NCBI RefSeq assembly: GCF_001677475.2
Contig: NZ_CP015229.1
DNA length: 64,000 nucleotides
Reading direction: 5' to 3' (one strand)
Source of the DNA: Escherichia coli
Lineage (GTDB): Bacteria > Pseudomonadota > Gammaproteobacteria > Enterobacterales > Enterobacteriaceae
The translations under genes were made by a program, and so were the position numbers. Below are positions 14,508-36,850 of this stretch, piece by piece. Numbering within the stretch: position 1 is the first letter of the stretch; every line of letters begins with the position of its first letter. Below the pieces are notes generated by a model. The model was not told the origin of the DNA and did not search any database. It worked only from the letters and a program-made list of their open reading frames with translations.

Positions 14508-14592
14508 GTAAGCGTAAACCGACCGCCGTATGTAGCCATTAGACAAGAATTGGTAACTTAGACGCCCATCTGACACAGACGGACATCTAAGT

Positions 14593-15012: not shown

Positions 15013-15359
15013 TCTCACTCCCATCCGGTACCCGTATCTGGCTCGTTGCCGGGATAACCGATATGCGTAAGTCTTTCAACGGGCTGGGTGAACAGGTACA
15101 GCATGTGTTAAATGTTAATCCCTTCTCCGGTCACCTGTTTATCTTCCGTGGCCGACGGGGTGACACCGTTAAAATTCTTTGGGCTGATGCTGATGGTCTG
15201 TGCCTGTTCACCAAACGCCTGGAGGAAGGCCAGTTTATCTGGCCTGCGGTGCGTGACGGTAAGGTATCCATTACCCGCTCGCAACTGGCAATGCTCCTCG
15301 ATAAGCTGGACTGGCGTCAGCCAAAAACATCCCGCCTTAACGCCCTGACAATGTTGTAA
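15009..15359 (+). CDS. IS66 family accessory protein (orfB/TnpB)
   Basis: 116 aa; ATGA overlap with orfA. Confidence 0.85.
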   Translation: MISLPSGTRIWLVAGITDMRKSFNGLGEQVQHVLNVNPFSGHLFIFRGRRGDTVKILWADADGLCLFTKRLEEGQFIWPAVRDGKVSITRSQLAMLLDKLDWRQPKTSRLNALTML

Positions 15360-15389
15360 AAAACGCCTGGCCGCATTATAAAAACGGCC

Positions 15390-16982
15390 ATGAGTCAGAA
15401 ATACCTCATTCGCATTGCAGAACTGGAAAGCCAGCTCCGTCAGAAAGACCAGCAACTGAGTCTGGTTGAAGAGACGGAGGCCTTCCTGCGCTCTGCACTG
15501 GCACGTGCCGAAGAAAAGATCGAAGAAGATGAACGGGAAATAGAACATCTGCGGGCTCAGATAGAAAAACTGCGCCGGATGCTGTTCGGTACCCGTTCTG
15601 AAAAACTGCGTCGTGAAGTTGAACAGGCTGAGGCCCTGCTGAAACAACGCGAACAGGACAGCGATCGTTACAGTGGGCGGGAAGACGATCCACAGGTTCC
15701 CCGCCAGTTGCGACAGTCGCGCCATCGTCGTCCGTTACCGGCACACCTTCCCCGTGAAATACACCGTCTGGAGTCTGAAGAAAGTTGTTGCCCGGAATGT
15801 GGCGGCGAGCTGGATTATCTGGGGGAAGTCAGTACTGAGCAGCTGGAACTGGTGAGCAGCGCCCTGAAAGTGATCCGCACAGAACGGGTAAAAAAAGCCT
15901 GTACAAAATGTGACTGCATCATTGAAGCACCGGCGCCGTCCCGCCCGATAGAGCGTGGTATCGCGGGCCCCGGATTACTTGCCCGCGTGTTAACGGGAAA
16001 ATACTGCGAACACCTGCCACTGTATCGTCAGAGTGAAATCTTTGCCCGACAGGGTGTCGAACTGAGCCGTGCATTACTCTCCAACTGGGTTGACGCGTGC
16101 TGCCAGTTAATGATGCCGCTGAATGATGCCCTGTACCGTTATGTGATGAATACCCGCAAGCTTCACACTGACGACACACCGGTAAAGGTACTGGCACCGG
16201 GCTTGAAAAAGACGAAAACAGGGCGCATCTGGACGTATGTCCGGGATGATCGCAATGCGGGTTCGTCATCTCCTCCGGCGGTCTGGTTCGCGTACTCACC
16301 GAACCGGCAGGGGAAACACCCGGAGCAACACCTCCGCCCCTTCCGGGGTATCCTGCAGGCGGATGCGTTCACAGGTTATGACAGGCTGTTCAGTGCAGAA
16401 CGTGAAGGTGGTGCGCTGACAGAAGTTGCGTGCTGGGCCCATGCCCGGAGAAAAATCCACGATGTATACATCAGCAGCAAAAGTGCGACGGCAGAAGAAG
16501 CCCTGAAGCGAATCAGTGAACTGTACGCCATCGAGGATGAAATACGGGGATTACCAGAGTCAGAGCGTCTTGCAGTCAGACAGCAGCGAAGCAAAGCGTT
16601 ACTGACGTCGCTGCATGAATGGATGGTGGAGAAGAATGGCACGCTGTCGAAAAAATCCAGACTGGGCGAAGCGTTCAGCTATGTACTGAATCAGTGGGAC
16701 GCCCTCTGTTATTACAGTGATGACGGACTGGCGGAGACGGACAATAACACAGCGGAAAGAGCGCTTCGTGCAGTCTGTCTTGGAAAGAAAAATTACGTGT
16801 TCTTCGGTAGCGATCACGGTGGCGAGCGTGGTGCACTGCTATACGGGCTGATCGGCACCTGCCGTCTGAACGGTATCGATCCGGAAGCGTATCTGCGCCA
16901 TATTCTGAGCGTACTGCCGGAATGGCCCTCCAACCGTGTTGACGAACTCCTGCCATGGAACGTGGTTCTCACCAATAAATAA
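15390..16982 (+). CDS. IS66 family transposase (TnpC)
   Basis: 530 aa with N-terminal coiled coil/leucine zipper, CxxC zinc-finger motifs and DDE-type core. Confidence 0.9.
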   Translation: MSQKYLIRIAELESQLRQKDQQLSLVEETEAFLRSALARAEEKIEEDEREIEHLRAQIEKLRRMLFGTRSEKLRREVEQAEALLKQREQDSDRYSGREDDPQVPRQLRQSRHRRPLPAHLPREIHRLESEESCCPECGGELDYLGEVSTEQLELVSSALKVIRTERVKKACTKCDCIIEAPAPSRPIERGIAGPGLLARVLTGKYCEHLPLYRQSEIFARQGVELSRALLSNWVDACCQLMMPLNDALYRYVMNTRKLHTDDTPVKVLAPGLKKTKTGRIWTYVRDDRNAGSSSPPAVWFAYSPNRQGKHPEQHLRPFRGILQADAFTGYDRLFSAEREGGALTEVACWAHARRKIHDVYISSKSATAEEALKRISELYAIEDEIRGLPESERLAVRQQRSKALLTSLHEWMVEKNGTLSKKSRLGEAFSYVLNQWDALCYYSDDGLAETDNNTAERALRAVCLGKKNYVFFGSDHGGERGALLYGLIGTCRLNGIDPEAYLRHILSVLPEWPSNRVDELLPWNVVLTNK

Positions 16983-17012
16983 GCGTCAATACGGTGCTCC
17001 GTTGACGCTTAC

Positions 17013-17020
17013 GGCCAGCG
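17013..17020. repeat. 8-bp target-site duplication GGCCAGCG of the IS66 insertion in IS629 (one copy)
   Basis: Identical 8 bp (as CGCTGGCC) abuts the other IS66 copy at 48552-48559. Confidence 0.8.
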
Positions 17021-17624
17021 ATACATACTGAGAACCTTTATCACTGTGATGGATTGTGCCGGACGGCCGACGGGCCCACAACGCCTGCTCCAGTGCATCC
17101 AGCACGAATGTTGTTTCCATGGATGATGAGACCTGCCATCCCACGATGTATCCGGCGAACACATCAATGATGAACGCCACATAAACGAAGCCCTGCCATG
17201 TGCTTACCCAGGTAAAATCAGCCACCCACAACTGGTCTGGACGTTCTGCCACGAACTGACGGTTTACGCGGTCGCATGCGGCAACGGCTTTCCGGCTGAC
17301 GGTAGTGCGGACCTTTTTACCCCGGAGAACACCGGCAAGTCCCATAACTGCCATGAGACGTGCCACAGTGCATCTGGCCACTCTGATACCTTCCCGTAAC
17401 AACTGACGCCAGACTTTACGCACACCGTATACCTGGTGATTTTCATCGTATACGCGCTGTATCTCTTTCTTCAGCCAGTCATCGTGCTGCGCACGGGCAC
17501 TGCGTTTATCCGGATGATGTCGCTGTTGCTGACAATGGTAATACGTTGACGGGGCAATATGCAGTTCGCTGCATACCGGTCCGACCCCGTACTGCTCACG
17601 CAGCTTATCCAGCAGTGGCATCAT
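17013..17624 (-). pseudogene. IS629 transposase orfB, N-terminal fragment interrupted by IS66
   Basis: IS3-family OrfB sequence ...HHSDKGSQYVSLA ends at the IS66 junction; the remainder YTQRLKEAG... is at 48560-48838. Confidence 0.8.
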
Positions 17625-17947
17625 TTTTTCCAGAGGCGGTCGAACTCCGCCTTCGCAAAATAAGCGGAAGCCTGGCGAAGGATATCGTTACTGCGGCGCA
17701 GTTCACGATTTTCACGTTCCAGCTCTTTCAGACGCTGACGTTCAGCGCTGGTGAGCCCACCATCACCGCCCCCGGTATCCCGCTCATGCTGGCGAACCCA
17801 GACACGCAGAGTCTCCGGCGTACAGCCAATCTTTGGGGCAATGGAACAAATTGCCGCCCACTGTGAGTCATATTCATCCTGACTTTCCAGAACCATACGA
17901 ATCGCCCGCTGACGGACTTCGGGGGAAAAACGAGTATTTTTAGTCAT
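17621..17947 (-). CDS. IS629 orfA (IS3 family transposase N-terminal protein)
   Basis: 108 aa, [22 protein letters not shown]... with leucine zipper; overlaps orfB in the -1 frame as in IS3 family. Confidence 0.85.
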
Positions 17948-19451: not shown

Positions 19452-20684
19452 ATGAATGATAATTTTTTAACGGAGAAAGTCCTTACTGGAGAGAATGTTC
19501 TGCGTGCAGCAATTGCTCGTATTGAGTGGATTTTTGAAACATTTCCATCAGTTTGTCTCTCTTTTTCCGGTGGTAAAGATTCCACCGTGCTTTTCCATCT
19601 TGTGGCTGATGTGGCCCGCAGGAAAAGACGTCGTTTCTCTGTACTGTTCATTGACTGGGAGGCTCAGTACCAGTGCACCATTGAACATATTCAGAAGATG
19701 CGGGAAATGTACTATGATGTGACGGAAACCTTTTACTGGGTGGCGCTTCCCCTGACCACGGTAAACGGTGTCTCGCAGTTTCAACCGGAGTGGATATGCT
19801 GGGAGCCTCGTGTGACCTGGGTTCGCCAGCCACCGGAAGAGGCCATTACGGATATGGCGTATTTTCCCTTTTACCGGTATGCCATGGCGTTTGAAGAATT
19901 TGTTCCGGCATTTTCTTCCTGGTTTGCTGGCAACCGGTGTGGAGTGGCAGTGCTGACCGGTGTCCGGGCGGATGAATCCCTCAACCGCTTTATGGGACTG
20001 GTGTCCCAGCGCAAACTGAGATATGCCAATGATAAGCCTTGGACCACGGCATCGCCTGAAGGGTTTTACTACACTATGTATCCGCTGTATGACTGGAAAA
20101 CTCGTGATATCTGGATATATCACACCAGAACCCGTGCCATCTACAATCCCCTGTATGATCTGATGTACCGTGCCGGCGTACCGTTACGCAACATGCGTGT
20201 CTGTGAACCTTTTGGTCCTGAACAACGTAAGGGACTGTGGCTTTACCATGTTCTGGAACCGGAAACCTGGGCCAGGATGTGTGAGCGGGTGTCAGGGGCT
20301 GCCAGCGGGGCACTTTATGCCAATGAAAGCGGGGCTTATTTTGCCCTGCGTAAGCGCATATCAAAACCAGCCCATCATACCTGGCGCAGCTATGCGATGT
20401 TTCTGCTGGATGTGATGCCGGAAAGAACGGCAGAACATTACCGCAACAAGATAGCTGTCTATCTGCGCTGGTATCAGACGCGGGGCTTCCCGGATGACAT
20501 CCCGGATGAACAGGAGAATGACCTGGGGAGCCGGGATATTCCGTCCTGGCGACGTATCTGTAAGACTCTCATAAAGAATGATTTCTGGTGCCGTACCCTC
20601 TCCTTCAGTCCGAACAAACCCCGGCACTATGAACGTTATCTGCAGCGTATGAAAGAAAGGAGGAAGGAATGGGGGATTCTGTGA
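19452..20684 (+). CDS. ibrA: PAPS-reductase-like protein, IbrA-like (co-activator of prophage gene expression)
   Basis: 410 aa with SGGKDS PP-loop motif near the N-terminus; partnered with a ParB-like gene as in the described ibrAB pair. Confidence 0.75.
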   Translation: MNDNFLTEKVLTGENVLRAAIARIEWIFETFPSVCLSFSGGKDSTVLFHLVADVARRKRRRFSVLFIDWEAQYQCTIEHIQKMREMYYDVTETFYWVALPLTTVNGVSQFQPEWICWEPRVTWVRQPPEEAITDMAYFPFYRYAMAFEEFVPAFSSWFAGNRCGVAVLTGVRADESLNRFMGLVSQRKLRYANDKPWTTASPEGFYYTMYPLYDWKTRDIWIYHTRTRAIYNPLYDLMYRAGVPLRNMRVCEPFGPEQRKGLWLYHVLEPETWARMCERVSGAASGALYANESGAYFALRKRISKPAHHTWRSYAMFLLDVMPERTAEHYRNKIAVYLRWYQTRGFPDDIPDEQENDLGSRDIPSWRRICKTLIKNDFWCRTLSFSPNKPRHYERYLQRMKERRKEWGIL

Positions 20685-21307
20685 CACCGGAGATACTGAG
20701 CAACATGATTCGTCAGTACTTCAGCCAGGAACGACCAGAAGAAGAGGCCATACAGGCCCTGAATCATCTGCGCAGGGTGCTTCATGAGGTCAGTCCATTT
20801 GCACAGGAGCCTGTGGACTGTGTGCTGTGGGTGAAAGCAGATGAGGTGGTGGCCAACGATTATAACCCCAATGTCATGGCGCCGGGTGAGAAGAAACTGC
20901 TGAAACATTCACTGGAGCAGGATGGGTTCACGCAGCCTGTGGTTGTCTCGGAAGAGAAGGAGCATTATCTGGTCGTGGATGGTTTTCATCGTCAATTACT
21001 GGGCAGGGAAGCAGGTACGGGAAAACGCCTGAAGGGCTGGTTGCCAGTGACCTGTATTAATCCGGAAAGAAAGGGACAGGCCTCACGTATTGCTGCAACC
21101 ATTAGACATAACCGGGCCAGGGGGAAGCACCAGATAACTTCAATGTCTGATATTGTCAGGGACCTGTCGCGGCTGGGCTGGACGGATGAACGTATTGGTA
21201 CGGAGCTGGGTATGGACCAGGATGAAGTTCTCAGGTTGAAACAGATTAGCGGGCTGACGGAGCTGTTTCTGGAAGAGGATTTCAGTCCGGCATGGACGGT
21301 TCGCTGA
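20669..21307 (+). CDS. ibrB: ParB-like nuclease domain protein, IbrB-like
   Basis: 212 aa; overlaps the ibrA 3' end by 16 nt; ParB/Srx-type N-terminal region. Confidence 0.7.
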   Translation: MGDSVTPEILSNMIRQYFSQERPEEEAIQALNHLRRVLHEVSPFAQEPVDCVLWVKADEVVANDYNPNVMAPGEKKLLKHSLEQDGFTQPVVVSEEKEHYLVVDGFHRQLLGREAGTGKRLKGWLPVTCINPERKGQASRIAATIRHNRARGKHQITSMSDIVRDLSRLGWTDERIGTELGMDQDEVLRLKQISGLTELFLEEDFSPAWTVR

Positions 21308-21346
21308 GACCGTCATATATGTATATTATTTCAGTGAGTTAATGTT

Positions 21347-21655
21347 TTGAGCAGGAAAAAGAGTACCCCGGAAGTCGTGGAAGACATGGTTGCACAGAAG
21401 CTGGAGGCTGCGGGTTGCTGGCGCAGAGCTTCCGCCCGCTGGCTTTTTGTTATGGGAAATGTTGAATGTACAGAAGCACAACGGGAGTGGTTGTTGTTGC
21501 GCAGGAATTATTGCCTGGCGCAGATATCGTCCCCGCCGCTACCTGAAAAGCTGGATATCAGCGAAGTGGCGAAAGCTGCAGATGCCACGCTGAGGCGAAT
21601 GGGGATTGCCAGTCCGTCCGGGGAGGTATTCAGAAAAGGTACACCGGTCTGTTGA
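21347..21655 (+). CDS. hypothetical small protein (weak resemblance to PerC-family activators)
   Basis: 102 aa; LEAAGCWRRASARW segment resembles PerC/Pch-type proteins as I recall them; not verified. Confidence 0.35.
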   Translation: MSRKKSTPEVVEDMVAQKLEAAGCWRRASARWLFVMGNVECTEAQREWLLLRRNYCLAQISSPPLPEKLDISEVAKAADATLRRMGIASPSGEVFRKGTPVC

Positions 21656-22384: not shown

Positions 22385-22708
22385 GTGAGTAACCGTTATT
22401 GGATGATCTCCTTCCATAAAAATACGCGCAATCTAACGGTTTGCTCTGTGCCAAAAAAAGACATTGCTCACAATATCGAGTTAATCATTCGGCCGTTGAA
22501 CATTCCCATTGAAAAATTTCTCAGTATAGAATATACCAATGTTGAGGGCATTCCTCTTACATCTCGAAGGATAACTATCATGGGTCTAAAACCAGGTCCA
22601 AAACCAATTGCTAAGTCAACAGGAAAACCGGATCAACGCCGACGCGATAATAAAGATACTCCTGGCAATACTCCGGGATTAAAGCCAAGTAAGTCCACAG
22701 GTAAGTAA
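22385..22708 (+). CDS. hypothetical protein
   Basis: 107-codon ORF with a Pro/Lys/Gly-rich C-terminus; convergent with the helicase gene. Confidence 0.3.
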   Translation: MSNRYWMISFHKNTRNLTVCSVPKKDIAHNIELIIRPLNIPIEKFLSIEYTNVEGIPLTSRRITIMGLKPGPKPIAKSTGKPDQRRRDNKDTPGNTPGLKPSKSTGK

Positions 22709-22755
22709 AAAATAAGGGTATAAATACTTATTTATACCCTGACTACATATCCAGT

Positions 22756-24954
22756 CTACTGAAGGTGTTTCTGCAGCCAGATGCACGTTCCTTTTATATC
22801 ATACGCCTGTGCCCCATACCCTTTAGCAAGCAAAGTCTCTGGTAAATACTCGTCATATTTATCCAGATACTTGTCGGGAACAACTGCAGCAAGCTCAAAC
22901 TCTGAAGGTAGCCCCGACAATAGCATTTTCTTAAGTGCACGCTGGACAGAGGCAACGCCTGAGTCCTCTACCTCTATCACACCTGCAAATGAACTGGCTT
23001 TAAAGCCACAACGTATAATCAGGGACGTAATTGTATTGACAATTTTATCCCCCATCCACGGGATCACGTAGCAGTTCTGACCACTGGCAATAAAACAGTC
23101 ATTTTGTAGATTGTAGCGTTGGAAGTTGTCACTTCCTTCCGCGAAGAGGCTTCTGGCTGCGGCATCAGCATAATCGACTCTCTTGTTGCCTACCGCGATA
23201 CGGTAATCATTTTCCCTGTAGATAGTGAGCATTTCCTGGCGAACAACATCATGAACAGACATCCCGGTACCACTGAATAGTGGCGGCTGACCGCCTTTAG
23301 TCGTCTCAACATAGATAACCTTTTTTTCAACCTCGATCTCTGTCACTTTCCAGCGCCGTCCGCCGAAGATGATGTGCTGCTCCGGCAAAAGTGGGGAGTC
23401 TACAGGCACTGTGCCAAGAGTTCGGTTTCCCGTTACAATGCGAAACTCCTCAGGTGTATTGAATACGGCATAAAACGTGTAGTGATTAGTCAGCTTCTCC
23501 CCCTCAGCCCCGACAACTATTTCACCGCTGGTTAGTTGAGTGAGCAGGCCACATGTCCCCATATGTTTAAGCAGACTTTTGAAGTCATTTATATCCACAT
23601 TCCGGAACGGACCTGTCTGGCAAAGTTGTGACCAGAGCTGATCGGCACGAACACCTCCCCATTGCGCAGTAATAGCCAGGATCTGGTGTAGTAGTGTGGA
23701 GTAATGTTTCTGCCGGATATCTGCAGGCTCGAACCAGCGCTTAGAGATCATCAACCTGATCATTGCCATCGCCTGAACCAACTGCAGCCGTAAATGATCC
23801 ACAATGCTGCTGGTTGCGGTAAGTTCAGGTTCAGTAATTAACATTCTCAGCACCGATGGGGAATCGCGCCGCCCTGAACGTCCCATGCGTTGACGCAGAC
23901 TGGAAACAGAATGCGGAGGTGTCACTTGTATGACAGACTGCACCTTACCAATATCAATACCCAGCTCCAGCGTCATTGTACAAACAGCGGTTGTGGGCAA
24001 ATTCCCTTTCTGCAGTCGGGCTTCAAGCGCCTCACGCAACTCCCTTGCAAGGGAACCATGATGAGGAAAGAATTCATTAGGAACGACATTTGCTTCACAC
24101 ATGTCGCTCAGTGTTGCCGCTATGCTTTCAGTACGCTTTCGACTGTTAGCAAAGACCAGGTGGGAATCGCCACGGCAGAGCCTGAAAATATCCGCGCAGA
24201 CGAGCTGTTCAGCAGAGCTCTGGAGCTCTTCTCCTTTTTCGGGCACCCGCTCAAGATAACCTTTAACCTGAACCTGTAGTGTGGCTTTGCTATTACTGTC
24301 TGTTACCGTTTCACAAGGTAATCTCTTATCCGGGCGCAATAGTTCTGGTACTTTTTCCAGCTCTCCCAGCGTGGCACTCAACGCGACACGGGGAACTGGA
24401 TTCAACTGGCGTCCCAGCACATGGTCAATTCTGTTAAGCAGAGAAAGCAGCTGTATACCACGCTCTGAGCCAATAAAAGCATGGAACTCATCAATAACAA
24501 TGTATGCCACAGAAGAAAACGCCTGTTTGAGCCAACCCAATGAGTTTATGAGCAAAGACTCAAGTGATTCAGGTGTGATAAGTAAGATGCCAGAAGGGGT
24601 TGTCCGTGCTTTCTTCTTTTTGCTTTGTGGTACATCCCCGTGCCAGGGCGTCACTTGCATTTCCAGGGCTTCACCAAGACTCTCAAGACGACGGTGTTGA
24701 TCGTTAATTAATGCCTTCAATGGACTGATATAGATAATGCCAAATCCACCAGTGAGATCTGCAATCGCTGAACAGGCAGGAAGAAAGAAAGCCTCTGTTT
24801 TACCCGCAGCTGTACCTGCACTAATTAGTACATCACGATCACGGGCTAAAATTGCCGGAATAGAGCTTTCCTGCAAGGGCCTTAAGGATGACCAGCCCTG
24901 CTTATAAACCCACTTACGGACACGGGGATCAAGACTATTGTAGGCACTACTCAT
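22756..24954 (-). CDS. SF2 DExH-box helicase (Lhr-like), third gene of a candidate defence operon (SngC-like)
   Basis: 732 aa with motif I AGTAAGKT, motif II DEFH, motif III SAT, motif VI QRMGRSGRR; ATGA start/stop overlap with the upstream ATPase gene. Confidence 0.8.
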   Translation of the reverse strand: MSSAYNSLDPRVRKWVYKQGWSSLRPLQESSIPAILARDRDVLISAGTAAGKTEAFFLPACSAIADLTGGFGIIYISPLKALINDQHRRLESLGEALEMQVTPWHGDVPQSKKKKARTTPSGILLITPESLESLLINSLGWLKQAFSSVAYIVIDEFHAFIGSERGIQLLSLLNRIDHVLGRQLNPVPRVALSATLGELEKVPELLRPDKRLPCETVTDSNSKATLQVQVKGYLERVPEKGEELQSSAEQLVCADIFRLCRGDSHLVFANSRKRTESIAATLSDMCEANVVPNEFFPHHGSLARELREALEARLQKGNLPTTAVCTMTLELGIDIGKVQSVIQVTPPHSVSSLRQRMGRSGRRDSPSVLRMLITEPELTATSSIVDHLRLQLVQAMAMIRLMISKRWFEPADIRQKHYSTLLHQILAITAQWGGVRADQLWSQLCQTGPFRNVDINDFKSLLKHMGTCGLLTQLTSGEIVVGAEGEKLTNHYTFYAVFNTPEEFRIVTGNRTLGTVPVDSPLLPEQHIIFGGRRWKVTEIEVEKKVIYVETTKGGQPPLFSGTGMSVHDVVRQEMLTIYRENDYRIAVGNKRVDYADAAARSLFAEGSDNFQRYNLQNDCFIASGQNCYVIPWMGDKIVNTITSLIIRCGFKASSFAGVIEVEDSGVASVQRALKKMLLSGLPSEFELAAVVPDKYLDKYDEYLPETLLAKGYGAQAYDIKGTCIWLQKHLQ

Positions 24955-26267
24955 AATCTGAAATTCGCCAGGCCATCATCGTCATCACTTTCCTCCACAA
25001 TGGCATCATCCATATCGCTGAGCTTGTCTTCTTCAATCGCCACCCCCTCAATGAGGGTTTGCCAGTTCATCGTTCTGTTTTGTTCCAGCACAGCCAGCAT
25101 ATCCAGAAAACCTTTTATGGTATTGCGGGGAGTTCGAAAGTAAGCATCTCCGATGGTTTTGCTGCAGTGATGCAGAAACCCGGTCAGAGCATCATCTGGC
25201 ACCAGATAATTTGCGGGATCTCCACCAGCATAAACATGACGAAGGTTTTTCAGTAAAATATACAGTTCCTCAGGAGTGAGGCTGGCAAGATGCAGCGTGG
25301 GGGACGAGTAGTCAATCACGCCAGCTTTCTGTGCGAATCGGTTTTCTGCCAGACGCGACTGGAGCGCTTCATAGCTGTAGAGCCCCTTACGTGGATCGAA
25401 AAGAAATTCTGGCGTCCCCCCGAGGATAAAACCAATATTTTCGGCGGAGCCTTGCAGGCAGTCATTCAGGATCCGCAAAATTTGTTCGTAGTTGGCCGTT
25501 CTCGCTTGCGTATTATTCAACTTGAAGAGGTTCACCATCTCGTCGAGGCTAACTAAAAGTCCGGCATAGCCTGCCTGACGGACAAAAAGGCTCATCAACT
25601 TCAAAGAATCATAGAACGAGGCGTCTGAGATAATCGTTCGGACGTCAAGATCATTACGGGCATCAGTTTTTGTGGTGTACTCGCCCCGCAACCAGCGAAT
25701 AGCATTGGATTTTAAGGTTTCGTTATCCTGCTCATGCCCGCGCCAGAATGCGTCAATGACCTTCGCAAAGTCATATCCTCCCACCATATCTGACAAAGCA
25801 GCAAGGCGTTTATGAATAACGGATGAGACCAGGGAGCCGTTCGCATCAGCTTCCTTCCTTGCCTCAGTAACAAACCTTTCCACAACGCTAAGTAATGCAT
25901 TGCCATCTGGTTTGTTTCTGGTGGACATATTTTTCATAAGCTCTGAGTAGAGATTACGAGCCTGACCTCCCGATGAGTGGATACGTCTGTCGGGAGAAAG
26001 GTCTGCACTGACCGTGACCAGCTTCTTCTCTAACGCAATAGACCGTACAACACTTAAAAAGAATGTTTTCCCGGAACCGTACTCACCAATGATAAGTCTG
26101 AAGCTTGCCCCGCCATCAGCAATCCGTTCAATATCCTGATGGAGGGCGGTTATCTCATTCACGCGGCCAACCTGGATATGCTGAATACCTATTCTTGGCG
26201 TTACTCCCGACTTAAGTGACTGAATGATAGCGTCGCGCTCTTTCACTCTTATACGTGTTACAGACAT
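24951..26267 (-). CDS. P-loop ATPase, second gene of the candidate defence operon (SngB-like)
   Basis: 438 aa with Walker A GEYGSGKT and Walker B-like LLVSLDEM; acidic C-terminus. Confidence 0.8.
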   Translation of the reverse strand: MSVTRIRVKERDAIIQSLKSGVTPRIGIQHIQVGRVNEITALHQDIERIADGGASFRLIIGEYGSGKTFFLSVVRSIALEKKLVTVSADLSPDRRIHSSGGQARNLYSELMKNMSTRNKPDGNALLSVVERFVTEARKEADANGSLVSSVIHKRLAALSDMVGGYDFAKVIDAFWRGHEQDNETLKSNAIRWLRGEYTTKTDARNDLDVRTIISDASFYDSLKLMSLFVRQAGYAGLLVSLDEMVNLFKLNNTQARTANYEQILRILNDCLQGSAENIGFILGGTPEFLFDPRKGLYSYEALQSRLAENRFAQKAGVIDYSSPTLHLASLTPEELYILLKNLRHVYAGGDPANYLVPDDALTGFLHHCSKTIGDAYFRTPRNTIKGFLDMLAVLEQNRTMNWQTLIEGVAIEEDKLSDMDDAIVEESDDDDGLANFRL

Positions 26268-26270
26268 TCA

Positions 26271-28580
26271 CTAACCCTCTAATTCTTTGGCTATTTCCAG
26301 GTCAATCCAAATGTGATCATCAGCATCTTCCAGCACTGGTGCATCAACCACCGCATAGGACCAATCGTTAATCACCTCAAGCGCACCGCCGAGCATCAGG
26401 TTCCAGTTACTACACAACTCTGTCGCCTCTTTTCTGGACCATTGTTCTTTCTCCAGCAACCTGCGATAAAGTTGGCTATGAGCGGAGTCAAGTCCCCCTT
26501 CCCCGGTTAATGAGGCTGGAGCGCTTTCTGGTTGTTCTGGTTCTTCTTCAGTGAAAATTGAGTTCAGTAATTTACGAACATCATCAGTGGCAGATTCGTG
26601 GCGGGCAAGTACGTTGGCATCCAGCGTAAACCCTGCCGTCGACTGATTAGCTGGTACAGATGAAACGAGAGCAGTTTCAGTTGCGGAATGCTGATGGATA
26701 TTGCTTGATACGGATGAGGGATCCAGTCCCAGGCTTGTATAAATCTTCTCAAGCTGTTTGATTTCGGCAGGCGTAATTCTGCCGTCAGAGCAAGCGACAC
26801 TAACGATAACCTTACCCACAGCTGATTTTTCCGCTGCACCGAGTAATTCAATCCGGCTTTTCATTCCCGTCATATTCGCCGGAGTATGAAGCTGCCACGT
26901 TAAATATGCGTGCAGAGAGCGCTTTTCATCATCGCTGAAGCTGGCATTGTTGTTGATGGCATTCTCAAGCACTTTCTGTTCGGCTTGATCGAGAGAATTG
27001 TCAATCAAGGCGACTACCGAACCTAATCGGAGCGTCAATACAGCTGTGATAAATTCAGGAGAAGGTGAGAAACGTCCTCTTTCACCAGCAGGGAATAAAA
27101 CAAGTACACCATCGACATCTGCCTTTACGTGGTGGTGATAGGGGTCAGGAGCCAGACAGTATCCCATTTTCTGTGCAAAGGCTTGCATTAAGTCGGCCTC
27201 TTTTTTATTGATCTTCGCCGGACAGGTGGCATTCATATGTGACCAGTAGTCAGCAACTGAAACTATCCCACCCTTACTGCGGATTGCGTCATCAGCCCAG
27301 TGTTTGAATGTACTTAATATTTTTTCTGCGCTTTCGTTAACGATTTCTGAAGGCAGCAACAAAATTGCAGCGGTATCATTTGCTGAAGTACCTTTTCTAC
27401 CAAGGTAACGACTGTAAGCATCCAGTTCACCTGTGCATATATCGGCAATGGCCATAAGCTTCTGAACAGGGCCTTTCAATGCACCTGGATCAGGCAAGTC
27501 GGGAACAGGAAGCCGAATACCTCGCAAACTGGGACTTGCAGGCGTGTAATCTAAACGCAGACGCGCTTTATTCGGCTTCACTACCATCCCTTCACCGTAT
27601 TTAAGGGTGTAACGCCGTTTAAATAGTGCAGCAAATTCTTTCGCACAGCGGCGGGCGGGGGTTCGTAATGAGTATTCAGCATGGTTTGTCACCCACGTCA
27701 GAGCCAGATCCGCTGGAACCGGGGCTCCTGTATCAACAGTCTTTGCCAGGATTAACCTGAACTGCATGCTATTGCTGAACTCCGAATCATCGTTGAGAGC
27801 TGCTGCAAGATTTTCGTTCGGACGAAGAATGGACATCGCTTCAAGTAACTGGGATGAGTAATTCCGGAAAGATCGGTTTTCATTGAAAACCGATCTGAGA
27901 CGGCAGATCTCTTTGAAAAGAGAATAGAACTCATCGTCGGATATATTGTTGTCCCTGCTGTCAACAAGCGCCCTTCTTTCCAGACCATACAGATAAATGA
28001 AAACGTAACCAATTGGGCAGGAAGTGTCGCATCTGTCGCTGGCAAGCCAACTCAGGTACGCACCACGAGCTTCAGGTGAAAGTGAGGAAAAACTGGGCCA
28101 ATACCCTAATGAACTATCTTCGTAAATGTAAGGTGTGGGGGATATTTTAAGCGTGTCGTCAACTAGCGATGCCTCGTTATTGCCATCATAATAACCGCCT
28201 GAGTTATGCCCGGCAGGTTTCATACGCTGCCCAAGATAGAAGTGACCGCCGGTAACCTCTATCCCACTGACTGTGATCATCTCTCCCGGAAAAATCCAAC
28301 GAGCCAAAGCACCGGTAGTTTTTGAGAAATTCTGGCGTTGAGTGGCTGTTATGCTGTATTCGACATTCCGCCCGCCACTTAGTGTAAACGTAGCCAGATT
28401 GTCATCTTCGCTGTCCTCGTTTTGCATTACAGACTGATTTTTTTTGTTGTTAGCAAGCCATTCTTTAGGTGGTGCTTTCACAGGAGCGGAAGTATAAGAG
28501 CCCGCGGACTTAGTTTTCTTCTTTTTGAAAAAAAGAATATAAATCAAATAAATAGCTACTATAAATATCCATAACTCCAT
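26271..28580 (-). CDS. large N-terminally membrane-anchored protein, first gene of the candidate defence operon (SngA-like; TerB domain not verified)
   Basis: 769 aa; N-terminal hydrophobic helix MELWIFIVAIYLIYILFF followed by KKKK; 3-nt spacing to the ATPase gene. Confidence 0.7.
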   Translation of the reverse strand: MELWIFIVAIYLIYILFFKKKKTKSAGSYTSAPVKAPPKEWLANNKKNQSVMQNEDSEDDNLATFTLSGGRNVEYSITATQRQNFSKTTGALARWIFPGEMITVSGIEVTGGHFYLGQRMKPAGHNSGGYYDGNNEASLVDDTLKISPTPYIYEDSSLGYWPSFSSLSPEARGAYLSWLASDRCDTSCPIGYVFIYLYGLERRALVDSRDNNISDDEFYSLFKEICRLRSVFNENRSFRNYSSQLLEAMSILRPNENLAAALNDDSEFSNSMQFRLILAKTVDTGAPVPADLALTWVTNHAEYSLRTPARRCAKEFAALFKRRYTLKYGEGMVVKPNKARLRLDYTPASPSLRGIRLPVPDLPDPGALKGPVQKLMAIADICTGELDAYSRYLGRKGTSANDTAAILLLPSEIVNESAEKILSTFKHWADDAIRSKGGIVSVADYWSHMNATCPAKINKKEADLMQAFAQKMGYCLAPDPYHHHVKADVDGVLVLFPAGERGRFSPSPEFITAVLTLRLGSVVALIDNSLDQAEQKVLENAINNNASFSDDEKRSLHAYLTWQLHTPANMTGMKSRIELLGAAEKSAVGKVIVSVACSDGRITPAEIKQLEKIYTSLGLDPSSVSSNIHQHSATETALVSSVPANQSTAGFTLDANVLARHESATDDVRKLLNSIFTEEEPEQPESAPASLTGEGGLDSAHSQLYRRLLEKEQWSRKEATELCSNWNLMLGGALEVINDWSYAVVDAPVLEDADDHIWIDLEIAKELEG

Positions 28581-28809
28581 GAGGCAGTAACCTTAAAAAT
28601 AGCTTTTCACGCACACCAAAAAGGATGACGATGGGAAGTGGATTAATCTCAAAATAATACTTCTAAATTAAAAAGGTTAAAAGCAAATCACAACCTTCCT
28701 GAGCTTCCGCTTTTCTCTTTCAGAGGGCTGAAGTCGTTATCTGTAACCAGAGGAGATCAGTAGCCCGTTATGCCAGCTAAAGCACTCCGGGCAGATTGCC
28801 CGGAGTGCT

Positions 28810-28990
28810 TAATATTTTAATGGATTGTTAATCTTCGCATACTCAAAGGGGCTGGTATTTTCTTTCGAGTTTGTATCCAGAAAATCCCCCCACCACTGTA
28901 GCATCAACCGACGCTATTCCAGGTGTTCTGTTTTATGGATATAAGCCGCCCTTAATGAATTACGTTCCATGTGGCTCATCTGACGTTCAG
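28810..28990 (-). pseudogene. remnant of the 3' end of a second P4-type integrase gene
   Basis: ~180 bp closely similar to the 3' end of the intact integrase gene at 31928 (encodes ...AKINNPLK-like C-terminus); same flanking hairpin CCGGGCA...TGCCCGG. Confidence 0.6.
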
Positions 28991-29208
28991 CCGCTTTATC
29001 TCGTGCTGTTTTGGTCTTAATACTTCCATGCCGCTGCGATTACCTCTTAAACCCGCCCTTACCATTTTTATGGGTACGATAAGAAAACTTTATCGGGCAC
29101 GATCGATTTTATCGATCGATTCGATCGAAAACATTCCTTTTACCCTATCTTTTGCATGGTTTTAGAATGAGCAACCCCATTTATCGTTCGGGGAAAGTGA
29201 TAGCGGAG

Positions 29209-29958
29209 ATGATTGAAATGAATAAGGTTATTGCGGTTTCAGCGCTTGCCATGGCAGGCATGTTTTCGACCCAGGCTCTGGCTGATGAGAGCAAAACAGG
29301 CTTTTATGTGACCGGTAAAGCAGGTGCTTCTGTTATGTCACTTGCAGACGAGCGTTTCCTGTCGGGTGATGGAGAGGAAACATCAAAATATAAAGGCGGT
29401 GATGGCCATGATACGGTATTCAGTGGCGGTATCGCGGCCGGTTATGATTTTTACCCGCAGTTCAGTATTCCGGTTCGTACGGAACTGGAGTTTTACGCTC
29501 GTGGAAAAGCTGATTCGAAGTATAACGTAGATAAAGACAGCTGGTCAGGCGGTTACTGGCGTGATGACCTGAAGAATGAGGTGTCAGTCAACACACTGAT
29601 GCTGAATGCGTACTATGACTTCCGGAATGACAGTGCATTCACACCATGGGTATCTGCAGGGATTGGCTACGCCAGAATTCACCAGAAAACAACCGGTATC
29701 AGTACCTGGGATTATGGGTACGGAAGCAGTGGTCGCGAATCGTTGTCACGTTCAGGCTCTGCTGACAACTTCGCATGGAGCCTTGGCGCGGGTGTCCGCT
29801 ATGACGTAACCCCGGATATCGCTCTGGACCTCAGCTATCGCTATCTTGATGCAGGTGACAGCAGTGTGAGTTACAAGGACGAGTGGGGCGATAAATATAA
29901 ATCAGAAGTTGATGTTAAAAGTCATGACATCATGCTTGGTGTGACTTATAACTTCTGA
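29209..29958 (+). CDS. putative outer-membrane beta-barrel protein
   Basis: Signal peptide (…AMAGMFSTQALA), alternating beta-strand-like pattern, C-terminal ...LGVTYNF with terminal Phe. Confidence 0.55.
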   Translation: MIEMNKVIAVSALAMAGMFSTQALADESKTGFYVTGKAGASVMSLADERFLSGDGEETSKYKGGDGHDTVFSGGIAAGYDFYPQFSIPVRTELEFYARGKADSKYNVDKDSWSGGYWRDDLKNEVSVNTLMLNAYYDFRNDSAFTPWVSAGIGYARIHQKTTGISTWDYGYGSSGRESLSRSGSADNFAWSLGAGVRYDVTPDIALDLSYRYLDAGDSSVSYKDEWGDKYKSEVDVKSHDIMLGVTYNF

Positions 29959-30109
29959 CAAAACTGCTCCTGAAAGATAATAATTACCCATCTTCTGTAA
30001 TTAAACGAAGACTCCCTGCAGTAATTATACTGCAGGGTTGTTTGTTATCTGTTTCACAGGAGACTTCTGATTTTTATTCTCTTCACAATAATGTTGTCGA
30101 TATACTCCG

Positions 30110-31609
30110 ATGAATATCAGAAAGCTGTTTTATACGGACAATATATCCCGGATTTTATTGTTTTTATTCTTCCCGGGCATGTGTGTAATAACCACTGCCG
30201 CATGCGGATACACTGAGAAGAATGCCACCGGGAATGTGTTGCTGCTGTTTCTCCTTCTGATTCTTGCACACAGAAATACCCTTACATCCATTACAGCTCT
30301 GTTATTTCTGTTCTGTTGTGCACTGTATGCACCTGTCGGTATGACGTACGGAAAAATCAACAACAGTTTTATTGTCGCGTTGTTGCAGACCACGGCGGAT
30401 GAGGCTGCGGAGTTTACCGGGATGATTCCTGTTTATCATTTTCTGGTCAGTGCCGCGATTCTGGTGTTCATGGTTATTTTCTGGCGGACACACCACCGTG
30501 GTCAACGTAACGCGATGGCTCTGTTGTTATTCGTATTATGCTCTGTAAACAGCTGGCCGTTACGGATGGTTAAAGGAACAGTTGTGGGGACAACTGACAC
30601 ATTGCGTGAAATGCAGCGTTATGAACAACTGAGTCGGCACGGTGCTGACAGCTGGAAAATCCTGCCGGGAGCACCATTATATGACACGATTGTTATTGTT
30701 ACTGGTGAGAGTGTCCGCAGGGATTATATGTCGGTATATGGTTATCCCGAGCCAACCACACCATGGCTGAATACGGCTCCCGGTTTATTTATTGACGGTT
30801 ATACATCGGCAGCAGCCAGCACCGTGCCTTCCCTGAGCCGGACACTGATTTATGACTATGAGCAGAACCCTGATTCCGGCAACAACGTGGTGGCGCTGGC
30901 AGCAAAAGCAGGATACAGCACATGGTGGATATCCAATCAGGGAAAACTGGGAGAGCATGACACACGCATCTCTGTTATTGCTTCTGATGCGGACCATACT
31001 GTTTTCCTCAAGAAAGGCAGCTTTGCTTCCCGTAAAACGGATGACATGTTGTTGTTACAGGAAACAGAACGTGCGCTGGCAGATACATCCACTCCGAAGG
31101 TGATTTTCCTGCACATGATGGGGTCTCATCCGAACCCGTGTGATCGGCTTCACTCCTGGCAGAATAATTACCTGGAGCAGTATTCCCGAAAAATTGCCTG
31201 TTATCTTGCCAGCATCAGTAAACTGGATAACTTTCTTGGTCAGCTTGATGGTATCCTTCGCCGACACTCACGTCATTTCGCCATGCTTTACTTTTCTGAC
31301 CATGGGCTGTCGGTCAGCGACAGTGCTAATCCTGTTCATCATGATGGTCATGTGCAGGGAGGCTACAGCGTGCCCCTGATTATTACCGCCAGTGATATAA
31401 CCTCTCATCAGTCCCTCAGCAGAAAAATCAGTGCCCGTCATTTCACAGGTATTTTTCAGTGGCTGACCGGTATTCGTACCGAAAATATACCGCCATTCAA
31501 TCCACTGACAGACGAAGATAATGAACGCATTATGGTTTTTAACGGAGAGAGGTATGTACAGGAAGACAGTCTGAAACCGCAGCCGCTTATTCTTCCGGAC
31601 CACAGGTAA
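30110..31609 (+). CDS. sulfatase-family phosphoethanolamine transferase-like membrane protein
   Basis: 499 aa; N-terminal transmembrane segments then IVIVTGESVRRDYMSVYGY and HMMGSHPNPCDR motifs resembling EptA/YhbX-type enzymes. Confidence 0.6.
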   Translation: MNIRKLFYTDNISRILLFLFFPGMCVITTAACGYTEKNATGNVLLLFLLLILAHRNTLTSITALLFLFCCALYAPVGMTYGKINNSFIVALLQTTADEAAEFTGMIPVYHFLVSAAILVFMVIFWRTHHRGQRNAMALLLFVLCSVNSWPLRMVKGTVVGTTDTLREMQRYEQLSRHGADSWKILPGAPLYDTIVIVTGESVRRDYMSVYGYPEPTTPWLNTAPGLFIDGYTSAAASTVPSLSRTLIYDYEQNPDSGNNVVALAAKAGYSTWWISNQGKLGEHDTRISVIASDADHTVFLKKGSFASRKTDDMLLLQETERALADTSTPKVIFLHMMGSHPNPCDRLHSWQNNYLEQYSRKIACYLASISKLDNFLGQLDGILRRHSRHFAMLYFSDHGLSVSDSANPVHHDGHVQGGYSVPLIITASDITSHQSLSRKISARHFTGIFQWLTGIRTENIPPFNPLTDEDNERIMVFNGERYVQEDSLKPQPLILPDHR

Positions 31610-31927
31610 TCATATATGGCAAACTGTAATACAGTTGCTTGTACTGAAAAGTATTCTGTATAAAACAGAATCCGTATTCATATCAGCACAAGGGACCACC
31701 AAATCCCGGCAGTATTCCTTACGTCAGTTATCCCGCATCACTCTGTGAGTGAGTTTTTTTATGAGGTTACTTTTTCATTGAATATAAATAATGAATAACC
31801 GCAGATTCTGATAATCCTCCTCCAGGGAACAATCAGGTAAACAGTAAATACATCAGTTAATACCATTTTGTCTTTTTAACAAAGAAAATATTCATGGAGT
31901 AAGTTCCCGGGCATTTGCCCGGGATGA

Positions 31928-33193
31928 TTACTGTTTTAATGGATTATTAATCTTTGCATATTCAAATGGACTGATAAATCTTTCTCTGTTTGCATCCAGA
32001 AAATCGGCCCACCATTGTAGCATCAAGCGGCGTTCTTCCAGATGTTCTGCTTTATGAATGTAAGCAGCACGTACACCGTTACGTTCCTGATGGCTCATCT
32101 GACGTTCAACAGCATCGCGGGACCACAAACCTGATTCTATTAACGCACTACATGCCATCGCCCGGAACCCATGACCACAGACATCCCGGGTTGTGTCATA
32201 CCCCATAACCCTCAGGGCTTTATTTACGGTGTTTTCACTGATTGGTTTACGTGGGTCATGTGCTCCCGTAAAGATCAGACCATTTTCACCAGCCCATGTC
32301 TGAAGTTCTGCCAGTATGGCTACAGCCTGTTTGCTGAGTGGCACAAGATGTGGTGTTCGCATCTTGGATCCCCGGTGTGAGAATTTTACGCCTGGCAGAG
32401 GTTCGCGCTCAGCTGGAATAGTCCACATGGCATTGTCAATATCAATTTCCGACCAGCGGGCATATCTGAGTTCACTGGAACGAATAAAAACCAGTAAATT
32501 CAGCATAACTGCCAGTTGGGTGACAGGCTGGCCTTTATAACCGTCAATACGCGACAGAAGTTCAGGCAGGCGTGAAAGATCCAGAGCAGGGCGGTGCTGG
32601 CGTTTTACCGTGGTCAATGCACCAGCCATATCCAGAGCCGGGTTATATCTGATGATGCCAGACTGTACGGCATAACGCATTACAGCAGATATTCTTTGCT
32701 GCAGACGACTGGCGATTTCATAAATTTGTTTAGCTTCTGCAGCACGAACAGGGATAAGCAGGTCCGGGGTACTGAGTGTTGTGATATCCCGGTTGCCGAT
32801 AAAGGGGAAAACGTGTGTCTCGAGGCTTTTGAGTACTTTATCGCTGTGTGATTGTGCCCATTGTTTATTACTGACATGCCAGCGTCGTGCAATATGTTCA
32901 AAAGAGAGTTGTAAATCAGGGACTACTTTTTTAGCTCTTTTCTGTTCGCAAGGGTCAATCCCCTCCGAAATCAGTTTTCGGGCCTCATCCCGTTTTGTAC
33001 GAGCTTCGGAGAGAGAAACTTCCGGATACACACCAAGTGCCAGAGTCTTCTCCTTACCCAGAATACGATAACGGAGACGCCAGTAACGGGAACCATTGGG
33101 ATGTACCAGCAGGAACATGCCAGCCCCGTCAGTGAGTTTATAAGCCTTGTCAGTGGGCTTTGCAGCCCGGATTTTTGCGTCAGTCAGTGCCAT
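31928..33193 (-). CDS. P4-type tyrosine integrase
   Basis: 421 aa, MALTDAKIRAAKPTDKAYKLTDG... typical of P4-like integrases; adjacent to the pheV 3' end. Confidence 0.9.
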   Translation of the reverse strand: MALTDAKIRAAKPTDKAYKLTDGAGMFLLVHPNGSRYWRLRYRILGKEKTLALGVYPEVSLSEARTKRDEARKLISEGIDPCEQKRAKKVVPDLQLSFEHIARRWHVSNKQWAQSHSDKVLKSLETHVFPFIGNRDITTLSTPDLLIPVRAAEAKQIYEIASRLQQRISAVMRYAVQSGIIRYNPALDMAGALTTVKRQHRPALDLSRLPELLSRIDGYKGQPVTQLAVMLNLLVFIRSSELRYARWSEIDIDNAMWTIPAEREPLPGVKFSHRGSKMRTPHLVPLSKQAVAILAELQTWAGENGLIFTGAHDPRKPISENTVNKALRVMGYDTTRDVCGHGFRAMACSALIESGLWSRDAVERQMSHQERNGVRAAYIHKAEHLEERRLMLQWWADFLDANRERFISPFEYAKINNPLKQ

Positions 33194-33390: not shown

Positions 33391-33466
33391 TGGTGCCCGG
33401 ACTCGGAATCGAACCAAGGACACGGGGATTTTCAATCCCCTGCTCTACCGACTGAGCTATCCGGGC
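33391..33466 (-). tRNA. pheV: tRNA-Phe (GAA anticodon)
   Basis: Reverse complement reads GCCCGGATAGCTCAGTCGGTAGAGCAGGGGATTGAAAATCCCCGTGTCCTTGGTTCGATTCCGAGTCCGGGCACCA. Confidence 0.95.
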
Positions 33467-33571
33467 AACGGGGCGCATTAAACCTGATTCGCCTCGTCTC
33501 GTCAATCAAATTTCTTCAATTTAGTGCAGACTGCACAATCTATCATCACTTTGCCGCTATTGCACGCATTT

Positions 33572-34300
33572 TCAGGCAAACCAGGCGGTCCAGGCGGCGG
33601 AAAGCGGCATTGCCAGAAGGAGTGCTGGAAGCATGTTGACCACCGGGAACATTTTAATGCCACAGATGCGTAATCCGGTTGCCAGCAGCAATAAACCGCC
33701 TACGGCGCTGAAGTCTGCCATCATCGACGGTGTGGTCAGCGGTAATATCAGCGCGGCAGCCCACGCCAGCGTTAACTGGATGATCAGTAATGGGATACTA
33801 ATTACCGACACCGCAATACCCAACGAGCAGGCGAAGATCATCGCCGTAAAGAAATCGAGAAATGACTTGGCGATTAAAATACTCGGATCGCCGGTCATCC
33901 CTTCGTTCATCGCCCCGAAGATCCCGGTGCCGCTGGCGCAAAACAGGACAATAATCGCGACATAATTCTGAATAAAAGATTCATGCGCTGGCTTCTTACG
34001 TGAGTGGCGAAACAGATTTTGTGCTTTGGTGACCGCGGTATTGACGCCTTTTTCCAGCAGACAAATTTCGCCGATTAATGCACCGAGTAAGGTTGCTAAC
34101 ACCATCGCAGGAAGGTTGGCGCATTTCACCACCAGTAAAATACCAATCCCCAGCGATGCCAGACCAAAAATTGATGTCATGGAGACGCGGATACGTTCCG
34201 GTAAGCGTTGGCTAAGGAGTGCACCGAGAACGCCACCCAGTAATACTGCACTTGCGTTGATAAAAGGACCGATGACCACAAGAGTTCCTGTTAGCTGCAT
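33572..34300 (-). CDS. yqgA: DUF554 family inner membrane protein
   Basis: Hydrophobic 242-codon ORF next to pheV as in the K-12 arrangement. Confidence 0.8.
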
Positions 34301-34676
34301 TATCTGATTTTCTTATTATGAACGTTTGGCACCTTCGATGGCTTGTTTGTTCGCAAAGTCCTGGCTTGCACGCTTTAGCGAAAGGTGCCATGATTGCGCG
34401 AATTTTCTCCTCTCTGTACGGAGTTTGCCCGATGCACGCCATCTCCTTACATTCTCTCGCTTATCGCCGTTTCGCGCGAAACTCTTCTCTTTTTATGCTA
34501 CTGCTTATGCGGTGAAGTTAACGCACGTTCACTGCAGGACAACAGTAAAATCAGAGCATTTCTGCTTTTACTGATGTCTGGCGGTCGGAGCTGGTGACCA
34601 GTTTGACCCATATCTCATGGGGCAGGGTTTTCCACCTTGTCCGGTATTCTTACTTCCCCGAAACGGGTTTGCGCTT

Positions 34677-36812: not shown

Positions 36813-36814
36813 GA

Positions 36815-36850
36815 AAAAAACGGGTCACCTTCTGGCGACCCGTTTTTCTT
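36815..36850. terminator. bidirectional terminator between convergent speC and nupG
   Basis: A-run, hairpin AACGGGTCACC...GGCGACCCGTT, T-run. Confidence 0.7.

Follow-up and report, generated by a model that had tools for sequence, protein, structure and literature searches.

Three closely packed genes in a tRNA island of Escherichia coli raise the question of whether they form Shango, a defence system reported in E. coli and Pseudomonas aeruginosa PA14 (Johnson et al., 2023, PMC10250203), or another assembly of membrane-anchored protein, ATPase and helicase. The genes lie in a 64-kb stretch of DNA, here called the window. A sequence-only reading of the window had favoured Shango on gene order and domain types, had left the TerB fold unconfirmed, and had named a different membrane-sensor/ATPase/helicase system as the alternative. 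Our analysis identifies the locus, with a probability of about 90%, as an intact sngA-sngB-sngC operon on a 6.3-kb cassette within the pheV island (Table 1).

Table 1. Features of the Shango locus and its surroundings in the window.
Feature	Position	Strand	Description and evidence
Shango cassette, 6.27 kb	22447..28719	.	96.8% identical in an unrelated island context, strain WP5-S18-ESBL-09
Terminator-like hairpin	22715..22740	-	11-pair stem then T-run; begins 16 nt past the sngC stop
sngC	22756..24954	-	732 aa; SF2 DExH helicase; PADLOC SngC
sngB	24951..26267	-	438 aa; BrxC/BrxD-family (PF10923) AAA+ ATPase; PADLOC SngB, Pfam
sngA	26271..28580	-	769 aa; ORF, PADLOC SngA, Pfam, AlphaFold
Presumed promoter region, conserved upstream of sngA	28581..28719	-	Inferred from conservation
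P4-type integrase 3' remnant	28796..28994	-	Repeats 31915-32113 directly, with 78% identity to the intact integrase gene at its 3' end; RefSeq pseudogene in IBS28
Intact tyrosine integrase adjoining pheV	31928..33193	-	ORF; RefSeq annotation
tRNA-Phe (pheV), island attachment site	33391..33466	-	Flanking genes; K-12 comparison

Operon structure and coding evidence

Three minus-strand open reading frames in the window encode proteins of 769, 438 and 732 aa (SngA, SngB and SngC). The TAG stop of sngA is followed by three nucleotides (TGA) and then by the ATG of sngB, and the sngB stop and sngC start overlap in ATGA. These frames and junctions bear out the co-directional three-gene operon, with its 3-nt gap and ATGA overlap, that had been described from the letters. 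A single terminator-like hairpin past sngC also supports the operon.

Upstream of sngA, positions 28653-28719 are 89.6% identical to the KTE113 Shango clone discussed below, and homology with the second genomic context, that of strain WP5-S18-ESBL-09, stops at 28719. A consensus promoter scan of this region found no strong or convincing sigma-70 site, and the total of promoter-like sites was below chance expectation. TATTAT near 28656-28661 is a possible -10 element.

Against a second E. coli allele, dN/dS was 0.21 for sngA, 0.10 for sngB and 0.13 for sngC. Because the ratios are this low, sngABC are real genes and not chance open reading frames, and the allele comparison shows purifying selection on all three.

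Domain composition of the three proteins

SngA combines a membrane helix (residues 2-21), the KKKK motif, TerB_N, a folded middle region, TerB and TerB_C, in that order. It matches the PADLOC SngA model at 2.5e-99, and Pfam places TerB_N at 98-309 (1.4e-48), TerB at 519-624 (9.9e-06) and TerB_C at 644-768 (3.3e-27). Residues 1-19 form the hydropathy peak of the whole protein (Kyte-Doolittle 19-residue mean of 2.07), and the AlphaFold model (pLDDT 87.1) has a helix at 2-21 and a disordered linker at 22-90. Hydropathy and model agree with the N-terminal hydrophobic helix noted earlier. Comparison with solved structures by sequence, profile included, gave no match for SngA. Structure prediction had been proposed as a check, and Foldseek with the AlphaFold model retrieved the TerB-like structures 2h5n and 2ou3; with the Pfam matches, this places the TerB fold in the 769-aa protein.

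TerB domains raise the possibility that the operon is a tellurite or metal stress-resistance determinant, and some databases do call SngA a “tellurite resistance TerB family protein” on account of its TerB, TerB_N and TerB_C matches. Such an operon would be expected to have a stand-alone TerB with terZ/A/C/D/E neighbours. Here the TerB domain makes up only about 100 of 769 residues and is embedded in a multidomain protein, whose operon also encodes an ATPase and a helicase. No terZ, terA, terC, terD or terE was found among the ten flanking ORFs (PADLOC/NCBIfam) or among the genes that RefSeq annotates in the near-identical island, and the homologous cassette has been verified as anti-phage. 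We therefore rejected tellurite resistance, which is highly improbable.

SngB matches the PADLOC SngB model over its full length (1-438; 8.7e-187, 619 bits) and Pfam BrxC_BrxD (PF10923) at 1.3e-150. Walker A (GEYGSGKT, 61-68) and the Walker B-like LLVSLDEM (237-244) are where the sequence-only reading had put them. No substitution occurs at Walker A K67 or Walker B D242/E243 in four SngB homologues, which are 68-69% identical. The conserved C-terminal tail, which closes with DDDDGLANFRL, is acidic and terminates in a conserved F-x-L. No solved structure was matched by SngB in a sequence search that included a profile.

SngC aligns with the PADLOC SngC model at 4.6e-278 (923 bits; residues 2-729 on profile positions 3-719 of 720). 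Its helicase core consists of DEAD and Helicase_C domains (residues 25-363), and the four SF2 motifs recognised by eye, AGTAAGKT, DEFH, SAT and QRMGRSGRR, indeed begin at residues 46, 155, 193 and 355. By sequence, the core matches solved structures of Lhr, YprA and Brr2; the C-terminal region matched none, profile included, but folds like the winged-helix domain of Lhr and the domain after it. We considered SngC as an Lhr orthologue or housekeeping Lhr helicase. The likeness of fold is real, but scores are far under the curated family cut-offs (DEXH_lig_assoc, 237 vs 850 bits; PRK13767, 194 vs 849; Lhr PRK09751, 103.5 vs 1496), and the candidate was rejected. Unlike Lhr and Lhr-core helicases such as Mycobacterium smegmatis Lhr (PDB 5v9x), SngC is encoded by an accessory island gene that shares its operon with sngA and sngB.

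Assignment to Shango

The locus has the features by which Shango is recognised: a SngA with TerB_N, TerB and TerB_C, a SngB and a SngC that each match their own model best, and adjacent, co-directional genes arranged A-B-C. The profile-HMM searches suggested earlier matched TerB domains, the BrxC/BrxD ATPase and helicase families, and the earlier impression that gene order and domain types resemble Shango is upheld by PADLOC, Pfam and identity to the KTE113 system.

The ATPase and helicase have close counterparts in type-2 BREX (Pgl), where the homologous BrxD and BrxHI are adjacent and form a linked pair (PMC12839542), and sngB and sngC could in principle be such a pair surviving loss of the BREX core genes. 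SngB does match BrxD (PADLOC, 8.7e-44; NCBIfam, 7.1e-42), a BrxHI model spans the whole of SngC (1.7e-115), and BrxHI-type helicases share with SngC a winged helix and a C-terminal region resembling that of Lhr. The Sng models nevertheless far outscore the BREX models (SngB 619 vs BrxD 148 bits; SngC 923 vs BrxHI 385), and the NCBIfam BrxD score of SngB, 143.9, lies well under that family's 350-bit cut-off. PglX, PglZ, BrxC and PglW were absent from the ten flanking ORFs (PADLOC models) and from RefSeq's gene list for the near-identical island. In place of these proteins and a methyltransferase the locus has a TerB protein, which always accompanies the sngB/sngC-type pair in distant relatives. 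On model scores, absent core genes and this constant partner, a BREX remnant was rejected as barely credible.

The Shango system of E. coli KTE113 was cloned as SG206 (Millman et al., 2022, bioRxiv 10.1101/2022.05.11.491447, supplementary file 11). Its protein lengths (769/438/732 aa) and gene order are those of the window operon, and there too KKKK comes after an N-terminal helix. In the first 399 residues, KTE113 and the window are 91.7% identical for SngA, 99.0% for SngB and 97.7% for SngC. The upstream region is shared in part, and the island context differs. The window operon is an allelic variant of KTE113 Shango in which SngA is the most divergent of the three proteins; SngA substitutions relative to the second E. 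coli allele cluster at residues 97-150. Because the operon is an allele of an experimentally verified system, the alternative of a different membrane-sensor/ATPase/helicase system is excluded. The KTE113 cassette was reported to protect against phages, and near-identity suggests that the window allele may behave likewise.

Protection by E. coli Shango was modest, about 10-fold against two phages (Johnson et al., 2023, PMC10250203). In PA14, Shango (PA14_RS11735-11745) makes phages from several families plate less well (Johnson et al., 2023, NAR, PMC10250203). The PA14 system resembles the window operon in gene content (a TerB-like protein, an ATPase and a DEAD/DEAH helicase), but it sits in the core defence hotspot cDHS1 and the window operon in a tRNA island. 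Bunzi (BnzA) and Dionysus (DinB) are further phage-defence systems whose operons encode a TerB domain, and both have been suggested to associate with or survey the membrane. Their partners are unknown proteins or pore-forming toxins, whereas Shango has an ATPase/helicase pair, and SngA, unlike Bunzi and Dionysus, carries TerB_N and TerB_C beyond TerB.

Genomic context and conservation

The cassette lies beside an integrase remnant in an island attached to tRNA-Phe. This tRNA gene is pheV because yqgA, speC, nupG and on to yggM come after it. Strain IBS28 carries a near-identical island at pheU, which cast doubt on the site, but comparing the window directly with K-12 confirmed pheV. The earlier placement of the operon in the pheV island, next to the remnant, therefore stands. 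No second recognised defence system was found beside sngABC in a PADLOC scan of ten neighbouring ORFs. A PAPS-reductase protein near sngABC showed weak BrxP/DndC-like similarity in the same scan.

At least 80% of the 6.3-kb query was found in 442 of 5,426 complete E. coli genomes (about 8%). The A-B-C order is kept in distant relatives (loci L005, L006 and L007/L008) with SngA identity of only 35-43%, and sngB-sngC junctions are tight in three distant relatives. Across the same loci, SngB is the most conserved (68-69%), followed by the SngC C-terminal region (42-53%) and then SngA. This ranking fits a role for SngA as the fast-evolving, phage-facing part.

An N-terminal hydrophobic helix is present in 89 of 150 diverse SngA representatives. 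Since about 40% of relatives have no clear N-terminal helix, the family does not depend on membrane tethering. Other relatives have a DNA-binding N-terminus instead (ScoMcrA_N plus HARE-HTH, or HHH_5), and this variation fits a swappable targeting module.

Possible mode of action

Literature searches found no mechanistic study of Shango. Pfam and structure comparison detected no nuclease, toxin, protease, NADase or pore domain in SngA, SngB or SngC. We propose a scheme that is tentative at every step and, in its details, rather doubtful. SngA would be anchored through its one N-terminal helix, and the KKKK that follows, by the positive-inside rule, would keep the TerB_N/TerB/TerB_C part on the inner membrane's cytoplasmic side. 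There SngA may act as a sensing or positioning subunit that positions or gates SngB and SngC. SngB, as an ORC/Cdc6-type AAA+ ATPase like BrxD, would spend ATP in loading or activating SngC; a loader/helicase role has been proposed for the tightly linked BrxD and BrxHI of type-2 BREX (PMC12839542). SngC, as an Lhr-type-fold helicase, could then translocate on or unwind phage DNA, or intermediates of its replication, close to where the DNA enters, and stop the phage from replicating. Given the lack of nuclease, protease, NADase and pore domains, host nucleases acting on unwound DNA would have to account for any destruction of DNA, or the block may proceed without degradation. For want of an effector domain, the blocking or killing step is left unexplained, and this counts against the scheme.

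Abortive infection is another explanation, and an unlikely one. Infection would be sensed, for example as membrane perturbation through the TerB protein, and the SngB/SngC motor would attack host DNA or RNA, and not phage DNA directly, until the cell arrests. Membrane surveillance has been proposed for TerB proteins, and the cassette has no self/non-self marker such as a methyltransferase. However, cultures were protected at high phage doses (Johnson et al., 2023, PMC10250203), which speaks against classic abortive infection, and no toxin-type effector domain was found in the three proteins. Replacement of the membrane anchor by DNA-binding modules in some relatives also points to DNA, and not membrane state, as the recognised object.

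The loader/helicase scheme can be extended, more speculatively still, into a long shot. The N-terminus of SngA may serve as an exchangeable address tag, deciding where a strongly conserved SngB-SngC loader/helicase motor is put to work. In that case E. coli Shango would watch for DNA entry at the inner membrane with no effector of its own, intercepting entering phage DNA and disabling it by unwinding or stripping, not cleavage. This idea draws on the membrane helix in E. coli and about 60% of relatives and on ScoMcrA_N/HARE-HTH or HHH modules elsewhere.

Shango is a published system that DefenseFinder and PADLOC have covered since 2022, and tests have been made on an E. coli cassette of almost the same sequence; the window operon adds nothing categorically new to biology. 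Its generic RefSeq labels (“TerB N-terminal domain-containing protein,” “ATP-binding protein” and “DEAD/DEAH box helicase”) can become sngA, sngB and sngC. As hypotheses for how Shango works, we offer the swappable N-terminus of SngA, the Lhr-fold C-terminus of SngC, the lack of an effector domain, and conservation that falls from SngB through SngC to SngA.

Identification of the Shango Operon

The operon encoding SngA, SngB, and SngC showed every sequence-based defining feature of Shango. PADLOC profile HMMs for these defense proteins gave significant matches to all three products (SngA 2.5e-99; SngB 8.7e-187 and SngC 4.6e-278, both over full length). Pfam domains in SngA were TerB_N (residues 98-309), TerB (519-624), and TerB_C (644-768), while SngB is a BrxC/BrxD-family ATPase (PF10923, 1.3e-150) and SngC carries DEAD and Helicase_C domains. 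The sequence-only reading had proposed a Shango-like system and left the TerB fold of the 769-aa protein open; the Pfam domains settle that point. Its observation and its interpretation are both correct. Type-2 BREX was rejected: none of its core genes appeared among ten flanking ORFs searched with PADLOC models or in the RefSeq annotation of the near-identical IBS28 island, and the models for its ATPase/helicase pair, BrxD and BrxHI, scored far below the Sng models on SngB and SngC. The ter genes that would define a tellurite operon were likewise missing from both, and SngC lacks the defining features of a true Lhr orthologue.

Three tightly packed, co-directional minus-strand genes had been described, and the ORFs (see table) and junction sequences agree exactly, with a 3-nt spacer (TGA) between sngA and sngB and an ATGA overlap between sngB and sngC. 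All quoted Walker and SF2 helicase motifs are present, at residues 61 and 237 of SngB and residues 46, 155, 193, and 355 of SngC. The hydrophobic N-terminal helix claimed for SngA coincides with the hydropathy maximum (residues 1-19, directly followed by KKKK) and with helix 2-21 of the AlphaFold model, which precedes a disordered linker (22-90). Against a second E. coli allele, dN/dS was 0.21 for sngA, 0.10 for sngB, and 0.13 for sngC, so all three genes are under purifying selection. The acidic C-terminal tail of SngB (...EESDDDDGLANFRL) resembles a peptide for docking to a partner protein; its residues D430, F436, and L438 are invariant among homologues 68-69% identical overall (distant loci L005-L007).

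Features of the Shango island and its surroundings in the window
Feature	Coordinates	Strand	Remarks
sngA ORF	26271-28580	-	769 aa
sngB ORF	24951-26267	-	438 aa
SngB acidic tail	24954-25010	-	C-terminus
sngC ORF	22756-24954	-	732 aa
Terminator-like hairpin	22740-22715	-	11-pair stem and T-run, shortly past sngC stop codon
Second integrase, 3' remnant	28796-28994	-	78% identical to intact integrase gene
Outer-membrane protein module	29152-31609
Intact integrase	31928-33193	-	near pheV
tRNA-Phe gene pheV	33391-33466	-	then yqgA, speC, nupG ... yggM
IbrA-like/IbrB-like pair	19452-21655		overlapping genes
IS66-family copies	14504-17012; 46047-48554		2,509 bp each, inverted orientation
IS3 transposase fragment	16986-17624	-	directly adjoins IS66 copy
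ALIL pseudoknot (Rfam)	17550-17666	-	121.5 bits
K-12 metK through hemW	1-12073		forward orientation
K-12 pheV back to yggM	33391-45270		reverse orientation
IS66-adjoining flanks	13921-14503; 45271-46046		one inverted copy each

A Shango system from E. coli KTE113, SG206, was cloned as a 6,700-bp insert and is marked 'v' in supplementary file 11 of Millman et al. (2022; 10.1101/2022.05.11.491447); its proteins have 769, 438, and 732 aa, and its SngA starts with MEFWIFIIAIYLIYIIFFKKKK. Protein lengths are the same in the window, SngA, SngB, and SngC are 91.7%, 99.0%, and 97.7% identical without gaps (399 printed residues per protein), and the upstream region is partly common (28653-28719, 89.6% identical). 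Because these features are shared with SG206, the window operon is, judged by sequence, an allele of the experimentally verified system. In Pseudomonas aeruginosa PA14, an independently described Shango reduced plating of several phage families (PMC10250203). Shango is a known system that has been catalogued and, in nearly identical form, tested.

Distribution and Island Context

Of 5,426 complete E. coli genomes, 442 carry 80% or more of the 6.3-kb query, and 352 records match at 99% identity or more. Another ~390 complete genomes carry only part of it, for example the last ~950 bp (the helicase 3' end adjoining an IS3 transposase) or the helicase and ATPase genes; decayed remnants therefore appear roughly as common in E. 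coli as intact copies. SngB is identical to RefSeq WP_000117526.1; SngA departs from WP_000424709.1, and SngC from WP_000093094.1, by a single residue. The 6.27-kb cassette (22447-28719) recurs at 96.8% identity in a quite different island of strain WP5-S18-ESBL-09.

The island is attached to pheV, as had been read from the sequence, and the integrase remnant noted beside the operon was also found. In E. coli IBS28 (L001, NZ_CP049979.1), a near-identical island (only 4 nt differ over a 6.3-kb comparison) lies at pheU, adjoining dicD and dsbD. Either tRNA-Phe gene evidently serves the element as its site. Between the intact integrase and Shango are genes for an outer-membrane protein and a phosphoethanolamine transferase, then the integrase remnant, an arrangement that points to tandem accretion of two island modules. 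The outer-membrane protein is a beta-barrel similar to adhesin Adr (3.6e-28); the transferase is CptA/EptA-like, and all its scores for MCR families were far under cut-offs.

Beyond sngC, a 410-aa IbrA-like PAPS-reductase-family protein and a 212-aa protein named IbrB-like in RefSeq are followed by a PerC-family regulator. PADLOC models identified no recognized defense system in this pair, the IbrA-like protein having only weak similarity to BrxP (3.3e-07) and DndC; the pair could be a DNA-modification or defense-related module.

Two IS66-family copies (99.96% identical) bound a ~29-kb segment whose gene order is reversed relative to K-12 and which holds Shango, pheV, and the core genes from yqgA to yggM. 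When 13900-14503 is joined to the reverse complement of 45271-46046, a single uninterrupted 441-aa ORF results; its left part falls within a region that elsewhere carries a TRAP transporter annotation, suggesting that a TRAP permease gene was split by the IS-associated inversion. The ALIL pseudoknot, a programmed-frameshift element of IS3-family insertion sequences, overlies the neighboring transposase fragment.

The SngA Family and a Proposed Mechanism

Exhaustive searching placed SngA relatives in 4,125 clusters at 50% identity, with a conserved body (residues ~90-767) and a variable N-terminus. In 89 of the best 150 representatives a strongly hydrophobic helix lies within the first 60 residues, and basic residues typically come after it. 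Three distant representatives were placed on contigs; after SngA come, in every case, genes for a PF10923 ATPase and a DEAD/Helicase_C protein, and the B-C junctions measure 2-9 nt. Identity to the window proteins was 35-43% for SngA, 68-69% for SngB, and 42-53% for the SngC C-terminal region.

BrxHI, a homologue of SngC, is described as a winged-helix, Lhr-like helicase tightly linked in type-2 BREX to BrxD, its proposed loader or activator (PMC12839542), and helicase phylogeny places SngC in a defense-associated clade with BrxHI, DruE, and DpdJ (PMC12278908). The literature searched held no mechanistic study of Shango, and its suggestion on TerB proteins is limited to 'membrane surveillance'. 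We propose, with a probability of only about 30% for the model as a whole, that SngA, with its single N-terminal helix and the lysines after it, is largely cytoplasmic and tethered to the inner membrane, and that SngC, an Lhr-like helicase, would be loaded onto phage DNA or replication intermediates, or activated there, by the ORC/Cdc6-like AAA+ ATPase SngB. Profile-HMM and Pfam searches found no nuclease, toxin, or pore domain in SngA, SngB, or SngC, nor did fold searches run on the modelled SngA and on the C-terminal region of SngC. As Shango is without an effector domain, interference would come from unwinding DNA or displacing proteins, and host nucleases may then attack; abortive infection, the main alternative to such a loader/helicase system, is given a somewhat lower probability. 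One distant SngA (P0137, loci L007/L008) has ScoMcrA_N and HARE-HTH instead of the N-terminal helix, HHH_5 occurs in 3 of 18 relatives with long N-termini, and DnaJ_C replaces the helix in one aligned relative (A2). Since relatives swap the membrane anchor for DNA-binding modules, the N-terminal end of SngA may be a targeting module.
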